NCBI GenBank assembly: GCA_000004985.1
Contig: GG739338.1
Length of the DNA: 1,716 nt
Direction: 5' to 3' (one strand)
Source of the DNA: Naegleria gruberi
Lineage: Eukaryota
The stretch's first letter is position 1. Each line of letters opens with the position of its first letter. A model generated the notes under the pieces. It did not search any database. It was not told where the DNA came from and worked only from the letters and a program-made list of their open reading frames with translations. Below are positions 1 to 1,124 of this stretch, piece after piece. A program made the translations under genes and the position numbers.

Positions 1-916
1 ACAAGTCTAGAAAGTTTCCCTTCTGGAATTTGGTTGACTTTCCCATGTATCCTAAAGAAAATTCAACACATTCCTCAAATTCATATCTTTCCACATTCTC
101 AAAATAATATCCACTATTGAATTTGTAAGTTCCATTCTTGAAACAAAAACCGAAAGAATGTTCTCCAATAGTATCTCTATTAGCGGCATTTAGAACTGCT
201 TTGAATGGAGAAAATCCATTCATGAATGAAAAGCCTTTCACCCAAATCTGATTATACTTTCTGTATCCAATGCTCAATTGATGTAGAACTGGTTCAATAT
301 GTGAATGATTCCCACTTGGATCGAACATTCCCATTGCCATATCACATGTCGTTTTGATCATTTGGGAGGGTTCATCCACAAAGAACAAATTAGGATTAAT
401 TATCATACATCCCTCACTAGTCACACTCTTATCAATGCAATGTGGAGCAAACAATTTCTCAGCCACCTTTGCAATTGGCATTCCAATATATTCCTCTTTC
501 AATTCAATCATGAAAATTTTACTCTCTGCAGCAATTCGTCCAACAAATAATGAAACACTCTTCTCCAATTTAAAATCCTCAATCAAGACAATCACTTGCT
601 TCTTTTCAATGCAATACTTGCTGATGGAAAATTTAATTTCACCACTGCGTTCTTTAGGATAATTAATTATCAATTTGTATCGTTTCTCAGACTTTCCTCC
701 TTTCAATTTTTCAAACTTGACTTGAACTGCATTTTCATCACCTTCAGTTTCGAATTCCAGTTCAACTTGTTGTTTTCTATTCGATAGTGCTGATGAAGAT
801 GATGAATTTTTATTTTTGTTGTTGTGATGAATCGAACCCGATGATGATCCAAACACTGAATCAAAAGCTTGAGTCATTTCAGAGATCATTAGTTTGTGTT
901 GTACGAGTTTTGCCAT
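1..916 (-). CDS. Protein-coding gene, 5' end complete (ATG at 916-914), 3' end beyond the window start. Uncharacterised protein, N-terminal 305 aa in window: MAKLVQHKLMISEMTQAFDSVFGSSSGSIHHNNKNKNSSSSSALSNRKQQVELEFETEGDENAVQVKFEKLKGGKSEKRYKLIINYPKERSGEIKF...FKNGTYKFNSGYYFENVERYEFEECVEFSLGYMGKSTKFQKGNFLDL
   Basis: Manual reverse-complement translation shows 305 consecutive sense codons with no stop in 32%-GC DNA, which is vanishingly unlikely by chance. An in-frame TGA lies just upstream (937-935), so the ATG at 916-914 is the first start in the frame; it sits in an AAAAAAATG context. Codon bias is strong and consistent: GGA is 14 of 20 Gly codons, CCA dominates Pro. There is no N-terminal hydrophobic signal peptide. 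The frame is absent from the supplied ORF track only because it has no stop inside the window. Introns cannot be excluded, but none is needed within 1-916. Confidence 0.8.
   Translation of the reverse strand, partial: MAKLVQHKLMISEMTQAFDSVFGSSSGSIHHNNKNKNSSSSSALSNRKQQVELEFETEGDENAVQVKFEKLKGGKSEKRYKLIINYPKERSGEIKFSISKYCIEKKQVIVLIEDFKLEKSVSLFVGRIAAESKIFMIELKEEYIGMPIAKVAEKLFAPHCIDKSVTSEGCMIINPNLFFVDEPSQMIKTTCDMAMGMFDPSGNHSHIEPVLHQLSIGYRKYNQIWVKGFSFMNGFSPFKAVLNAANRDTIGEHSFGFCFKNGTYKFNSGYYFENVERYEFEECVEFSLGYMGKSTKFQKGNFLDL
782..850 (-). other. Low-complexity Ser/Asn/His-rich segment (GSSSGSIHHNNKNKNSSSSSALS) near the N-terminus of the 1-916 protein; probably a disordered linker
   Basis: Codons 23-45 of the minus-strand ORF. 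On the plus strand this appears as a GATGA/GTTGTTG-rich tract (tgatgaagatgatgaatttttatttttgttgttgtgatgaatcgaacccgatgatgatcc). Confidence 0.6.
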
Positions 917-981
917 TTTTTTATATTTGAATTGTCAATTTTTACAAAATGAAAGATCAATTTGGGGTTGGAGAACTTTCT

Positions 982-987
982 TGATAA
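982..987 (+). promoter_or_regulatory. TGATAA GATA-factor motif about 70 bp upstream of the ATG of the 1-916 gene. A second WGATAR site (GATAAG) lies at 1048-1053.
   Basis: cttGATAAtagg at 982-987 and gagGATAAGg at 1048-1053 both lie in the 917-1124 upstream region of the minus-strand gene. TGATAA(G) is the binding site of nematode intestinal GATA factors such as ELT-2. Short motifs like these are common by chance in AT-rich DNA. Confidence 0.25.
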
Positions 988-1124
988 TAGGCTGAGTGTG
1001 GTCTCTTAATAAAATGCAATGTCGTGTATTGTCATAGATTTGAAGAGGATAAGGCAATTTCTAAAAGAGCAATAATAGATATTGGTTTCGAAGATTATAT
1101 TTTTAATTAAATTATCAAATGTAA

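Follow-up and report, generated by a model that had tools for sequence, protein, structure and literature searches.

A gene at a contig end in Naegleria gruberi and its small family of beta-rich proteins

The stretch of DNA analysed here (the window) is an entire Naegleria gruberi contig, 1716 bp long with a G+C content of 32%. From position 916 to position 2 its minus strand can be read as 305 codons without a stop, giving a translation that starts MAKLVQHKLM and whose opening residues are MAKLVQHKLMISEM. We are very nearly certain that this frame comprises codons 1-305 of a nuclear N. gruberi gene that has 346 codons and no introns. The unplaced 1.7-kb contig on which it lies most likely represents the locus NAEGRDRAFT_74612 a second time, as an alternative haplotype or a redundant copy. 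To judge from sequence comparisons the gene belongs to a very small protein family, encountered only in Naegleria (three paralogs in N. gruberi and one protein in N. lovaniensis) and in one metagenomic protist.

The minus-strand frame and its coding status

The stop-free run on the minus strand is 311 codons long in total. Upstream it is bounded by an in-frame stop at 935-937. Downstream of this stop the first initiator, and therefore the earliest possible one, is the ATG at 914-916. At the other end the contig stops before the gene does, which is why the stop codon and the last 41 codons are missing. We compared the length of the frame to the lengths seen in 2000 dinucleotide-preserving shuffles of the whole window. 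None of the shuffles reached 305 stop-free codons (the longest run in any frame had a mean of 90 codons, a standard deviation of 19 and a maximum of 194), and the analytic probability of 305 open codons arising from base composition alone is about 5e-12. An earlier note on this DNA, made from its letters alone, had proposed the same frame with its ATG at 916, and both the translation and the shuffles bear it out.

The frame is absent from the program-made list of open reading frames (ORFs) because it extends past the contig end; the ORF lister omits ORFs that continue beyond the source sequence, and its default threshold is 60 residues. With that threshold it reports exactly three plus-strand ORFs over the gene, at 305-550 (81 residues), 354-662 (102 residues) and 596-787 (63 residues). 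We considered whether these could be conserved antisense genes and rejected the idea, because neither their positions nor their lengths are kept opposite the paralogs (a metagenomic contig with a close ortholog of one paralog, L002, has only one such ORF, at the 5' edge). The three ORFs are by-products of the coding frame, as the earlier note had supposed in calling them artefacts.

To examine selection at the DNA level we used two metagenomic contigs that carry close orthologs of the paralogs NAEGRDRAFT_75838 (contig L004) and NAEGRDRAFT_73179 (contig L002). In codon-aligned Nei-Gojobori comparisons, the proportions of synonymous and nonsynonymous differences (pS and pN) between the window coding sequence and L004 are 0.587 and 0.226, corresponding to a ratio of nonsynonymous to synonymous divergence (dN/dS) of 0.236; the ratio against L002 is 0.248. 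Third codon positions are the most diverged, with identities of 0.74, 0.81 and 0.56 at the first, second and third positions. The closest pair of family members, P0004 and P0007, shows only 2 differences, too few for an informative dN/dS ratio. The comparisons with L004 and L002 indicate purifying selection acting on the encoded protein, although dS is close to saturation.

The alternative to a functional gene is that the frame stayed open by chance or is the remnant of a decayed pseudogene. This would be compatible with the lack of any stop within the window and with the partial status of the model deposited for this contig, but the end of the contig accounts for the lack of a stop, no shuffle produced a frame as long, the dN/dS ratio is about 0.24 with third positions most diverged, and the 305 codons contain neither a frameshift nor a stop relative to the full-length copy of 346 residues. 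We consider this alternative effectively refuted. The relatives on genomic contigs L001, L002 and L004 are uninterrupted ORFs from ATG to stop, 309-336 codons long and colinear with the window frame, so no intron is expected within 2-916. The alignments thus identify the frame as a real protein-coding gene with a single exon over the window, in agreement with the earlier note.

Relation to NAEGRDRAFT_74612 and extent of the family

By homology search we found that the minus-strand frame is 100% identical to EFC35345.1, a 283-residue entry described as "predicted protein, partial [Naegleria gruberi]". The gene had been put forward as missing, which is true of the ORF list but not of the public databases: GenBank and UniProt contain a partial model of it and a full-length model that is 98% identical. 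The full-length model is NAEGRDRAFT_74612 (XP_002670328.1, D2VZT5_NAEGR; P0009 in our alignments), a protein of 346 residues encoded on a 245-kb scaffold, which falls in the same 90%-identity cluster as EFC35345.1. The partial model spans positions 41-889 of the minus strand, from Met10 to Gly292. Because the N-terminus is conserved in P0009 and in two other members (P0002 and P0003), and because the similarity to P0002 reaches the last codon of the window, these boundaries are too short at both ends; the sequence comparison supports Met1, encoded by the ATG at 916, as the true start, as the earlier note had it, and a coding region that continues to the contig edge.

The translation of the window and NAEGRDRAFT_74612 align without gaps from the same first residue and are identical at 300 of 305 positions (98.4%), and the two genes have the same start codon context and domain order. 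The window copy differs in lacking the final 41 residues and in five substitutions (T15S, A17T, N32S, A43S and L305F). Four of the five fall in the N-terminal helix or the linker that follows it (N32S and A43S in the linker), and the fifth is in the last codon, at the contig edge. There, minus-strand positions 1-7 read GAC TTG T (Asp-Leu-...), compared to Asp-Phe-Val (GAY TTY GTN) in the full-length copy. The L305F difference could therefore reflect the loss of one base, or low sequence quality where the contig ends, rather than a substitution.

Two relationships between the contig and the NAEGRDRAFT_74612 locus have to be weighed. The contig is probably an unplaced alternative-haplotype or redundant copy of that locus, because it is only 1.7 kb long, the genes at both of its ends are truncated, the proteins are 98.4% identical, their differences are concentrated in the fast-evolving linker, and Naegleria has been described as mainly a heterozygous diploid (PMC9928731). 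It could instead be a separate, recently duplicated paralogous locus. Five amino acid differences per 305 residues would be compatible with a recent duplicate, and the family has clearly been duplicated in N. gruberi, which holds three diverged paralogs. However, a contig of only 1716 bp whose flanking genes run off both ends is typical of unplaced haplotigs, and both the reported ploidy and the clustering of the differences in the fast-evolving helix and linker and at the contig edge count against a duplicate. We therefore prefer the haplotype or redundant copy and regard a recent duplication as unlikely.

Relatives beyond this locus are few. An exhaustive phmmer search of 1.84 billion cluster representatives at E <= 0.001 found only four proteins: the model already deposited for the window, NAEGRDRAFT_73179 (44% identity), a metagenomic protein of 309 residues (32%) and C9374_013010 of N. 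lovaniensis (32%). The homology search that identified EFC35345.1 also returned a predicted N. gruberi protein of 334 residues with 60% identity, NAEGRDRAFT_75838. The similarity of the window protein to other members is significant, colinear and full-length, with E-values of 7e-133 to P0002 (305 of 305 residues aligned), 1.4e-50 to P0003, 1e-12 to P0004 and 1.3e-08 to P0005. The paralogs NAEGRDRAFT_75838 (D2W367, 334 residues) and NAEGRDRAFT_73179 (D2VVY0, 336 residues), C9374_013010 (297 residues) and the metagenomic protist protein P0004 (309 residues) are all colinear with it over the full length, with identities of 60%, 44%, about 30% and about 30%. All four share the motifs NPN, DEPS, FEECxE, YxRGxV and WKRLxI, and the window protein has N174-P175, E182-P183, C191 and the FEECxE motif at F280-E285. 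Members differ in the length of the linker, and the N. lovaniensis gene model lacks part of the N-terminal beta domain.

Two profile searches, one of them with the low-complexity linker removed, added no relatives, and scanning viral contigs once and metagenome contigs twice gave no confirmed ones. An origin from giant viruses or other viruses was rejected, since there are no relatives in IMG/VR or BFVD. The earlier note had suggested a lineage-specific nematode family. The restriction to one lineage stands, but the lineage is a different one: all named relatives are from N. gruberi or N. lovaniensis, and the exact matches to records of N. gruberi (Heterolobosea) dispose of a nematode origin.

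The metagenomic protein is encoded on a eukaryotic contig with 39% G+C, where its gene sits between Nop16 and an unknown gene and downstream of a Ras-family GTPase gene. Two contigs from independent metagenomes, L001 (1-4478) and L005 (1555-4458) (JGI 3300002220, ENA ERZ27315067), are 99.3% identical and have the same gene order (Ras-family GTPase, Nop16, family member), with a G+C content of 39% as against 32% in N. gruberi. The family thus also occurs in a protist distinct from N. gruberi, which is presumed to be heterolobosean. A separate metagenome run, ERR1078381 (PRJEB11402), includes sequences from a Naegleria that is very closely related to N. gruberi. Its orthologs of family members, on L002 (613-1623), L003 (490-1500) and L004 (46-1053), are on genomic contigs with 32-33% G+C and share 90%-identity clusters with the paralogs NAEGRDRAFT_73179 and NAEGRDRAFT_75838; no ortholog of the window gene was recovered from this run. 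We found no paper that mentions any accession of the family.

Protein architecture and candidate functions

The full-length protein has a mass of 39.6 kDa and an isoelectric point of 9.1. It has no transmembrane segment and no segment resembling a signal peptide (the maximum Kyte-Doolittle score over 19 residues is 1.22 in the full-length copy), so the hydrophobicity check agrees with the earlier note's statement that the N-terminus carries no signal peptide. We derived its anatomy (Table 1) from an alignment of five or six members together with an AlphaFold2 model of the paralog P0002, mapped onto the window protein by pairwise alignment. It is a soluble, intracellular, beta-rich protein in two parts. 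The conserved N-terminal helix is modelled in P0002 with a predicted local distance difference test (pLDDT) score of 78-83. It is followed by a Ser/Asn/His low-complexity stretch at residues 23-45, GSSSGSIHHNNKNKNSSSSSALS, which the earlier note had pointed out and which is present in the translation along with the peptides quoted there. The N-terminal beta domain, the sole region of the family modelled with moderate confidence (pLDDT about 70-83), consists in the P0002 model of seven consecutive antiparallel strands (approximately residues 51-139) and then a helix, IAKVAEKLF (residues 148-156).

Most of the invariant polar residues fall in the beta-rich C-terminal half. N174, P175, E182, P183 and C191 are invariant in the central conserved segment, and the motifs of the C-terminal region are VKGFxF, GxCFKNGxY, FEECxE (residues 280-285, window 62-79) and FQKG. 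The 41 residues missing from the window carry the invariant YxRGxV and WKRLxI motifs, which are present in P0009.

Table 1. Positions of the gene, its upstream features and the segments of its protein in the window
Feature	Position	Strand	Basis
First 305 codons of the coding sequence (346 codons in full)	2..916	-	ATG at 914-916; no stop, contig ends
Conserved N-terminal alpha-helix, residues 3-22 (QHKxMxSE...F..VFG)	851..910	-	Both AlphaFold2 runs and alignment
Ser/Asn/His linker, residues 23-47, probably disordered	776..850	-	pLDDT <50 at the equivalent P0002 residues 25-36
N-terminal beta domain, residues 50-156	449..769	-	AlphaFold2 model of P0002
Central conserved segment, residues 174-209 (NPNxFFVDEPS...TCDxAMGMFDP)	290..397	-	Invariant alignment columns
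C-terminal beta-rich conserved region, residues 224-305	2..247	-	Alignment; continues past contig end
In-frame upstream stop	935..937	-	Translation ...FCKN*QFKYKKMAKL...
AT-rich spacer of 208 bp between the gene's ATG and the divergent tRNA-Asp gene	917..1124	.	Presumed promoter and 5' untranslated region

The earlier note could not place the protein in any family, and our searches agree. In scans against Pfam, NCBIfam and PHROGs with the window protein and all other members, no model reached its cut-off. Matches to FlgB and to phrog profiles (E about 0.03) were discarded, as they lie on or beside the low-complexity linker or are very short. Sequence and profile searches of the PDB gave only Septin-8, an integrase and 4eco_A, with E-values of 0.012-0.3, none of which is credible; the 4eco_A match consists of two stretches, each with an i-Evalue of at least 9.7.

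The note had also suggested a beta-sandwich domain. The protein is indeed beta-rich, and a sandwich is a plausible but unproven fold, backed only by sub-threshold matches to Ig-like Pfam families and by a low-confidence model. The best of these matches are DUF3244 (PF11589; 17.6 bits, cut-off 25) and Ig-like_KY (PF23265; 13.3 bits, cut-off 27), both below the gathering cut-offs and both confined to residues 36-88 of P0004, the first strands of its N-terminal domain. This weak likeness to Ig-like beta-sandwiches is seen in P0004 and not in the window protein or any other member. Foldseek searches of PDB and BFVD gave nothing at E <= 0.001. The structures that matched the paralog model best, none of them at that threshold, were the Lpt/OstA beta-jellyroll domains (LptA, LptC and the N-terminal domain of LptD), which like the model are elongated stacks of consecutive antiparallel strands.

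Two other folds were considered and set aside. The order of strands followed by a helix resembles the PH-like superfold, but no PH-like structure was among the matches. A beta-trefoil or other three-fold repeat in the C-terminal half (VKGFxF / CFKNGxY / FQKGxF) received hhalign probabilities of at most 2.3%.

The reading of the function that we rank first, with low confidence, is that the protein is a soluble, cytosolic, beta-rich binding or adaptor protein without enzymatic activity. Recognition of a ligand or partner would fall to the C-terminal beta module, with its conserved surface of Glu, Asn, Lys, Arg and aromatic residues, and the N-terminal helix on its flexible linker would serve as a tethered interaction element. 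We favour binding over catalysis because the alignment shows neither an invariant His nor a catalytic pattern that we could recognise, and because all of the weak similarities are to binding folds.

Several points weigh against this assignment. The binding mechanism has no significant match in its support. AlphaFold2 gave no usable model of the truncated window protein (mean pLDDT 37), and in the P0002 model the pLDDT is below 50 across the conserved C-terminal half. Residues called invariant carry little weight when the alignment has five or six sequences, and the invariant Cys191 and Cys283 and the acidic FEECxE cluster could equally well form a catalytic or metal site. No expression data for any family member turned up in the supplementary tables that we searched.

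An enzyme or metal-binding protein, with an active site in which the invariant Cys191 and Cys283 join the acidic FEECxE and DEPS motifs, is the next candidate, although we think it somewhat less likely than a binding protein. The C-terminal half does concentrate the invariant residues that such a site would draw on (N174, E182, C191, K227, N246, N261, Y264, E281, E282, C283 and E285). The lack of an invariant His and of any match to a library or PDB profile counts against it, and the region is predicted, with low confidence, as beta strands. When the alignment was read by eye for known active-site patterns (the Nudix box, the ART R-S-ExE pattern and a Cys-His-Asp triad), neither their spacing nor their conservation fitted, and the same is true of beta1-beta2 of a C-terminal PH domain.

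The new-fold alternative is a little more doubtful again: the family, kept in three paralogs under purifying selection, may represent a genuinely new fold or function that occurs in Heterolobosea alone and lacks any equivalent elsewhere among eukaryotes. It could, for example, be a beta module of the cytosol that binds lipids or resembles a lectin, with the invariant NPN, DEPS, FEECxE, YxRGxV and WKRLxI motifs at its centre. Least probable of the functions that we considered is cytosolic lipid binding or shuttling by the N-terminal beta domain, which would in that case form a hydrophobic groove of the Lpt/OstA-like or beta-taco type.

Other features of the contig and significance of the family

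The window also contains a nuclear-type transfer RNA gene, tRNA-Asp(GUC), at 1125-1195 on the plus strand, detected by ARAGORN and matching the Rfam tRNA model with 57.1 bits. It has a B-box-like sequence, GGTTCAATTCC, and no encoded CCA, and a run of five T residues at 1202-1206, 7 nt downstream of the gene, resembles an RNA polymerase III terminator. The tRNA gene and the protein gene are divergently oriented, with 208 bp separating the former from the ATG of the latter, and there is no tRNA gene beside the paralogs on L002 and L004.

A second gene fragment occupies 1462-1716 on the minus strand and continues past the contig end. It comprises the last 84 codons of a gene, with the stop at 1462-1464, and appears in the ORF list only as a 67-residue piece that starts with GTG. 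The encoded segment has one strong transmembrane helix, LIFVSSIALSLLFLTFRCC (Kyte-Doolittle score 2.09), and no Pfam match above the cut-off (the best was DUF5392, 17.3 bits against 25). An ORF of 77 residues that starts with ATG, at 1158-1391 on the minus strand, lies in an AT-rich spacer (24-31% G+C) and overlaps the tRNA gene in antisense; rich in Lys, Ile and Asn, it looks like an artefact of composition.

Naegleria genomes have many taxonomically restricted genes whose function is unknown (PMC9928731), and for that reason an orphan gene such as this one is ordinary. Public databases already list the gene and its paralogs as "predicted proteins", and the finding has little significance beyond annotation hygiene. 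What is added here is the right source organism, the correction of both ends of EFC35345.1, the recognition of the contig as a probable redundant haplotype contig of NAEGRDRAFT_74612, and the description of a family that evolves under purifying selection but that neither sequence comparison nor present-day structure prediction is able to place. The family would be of interest only if a structure or a phenotype were to reveal a new fold or activity.
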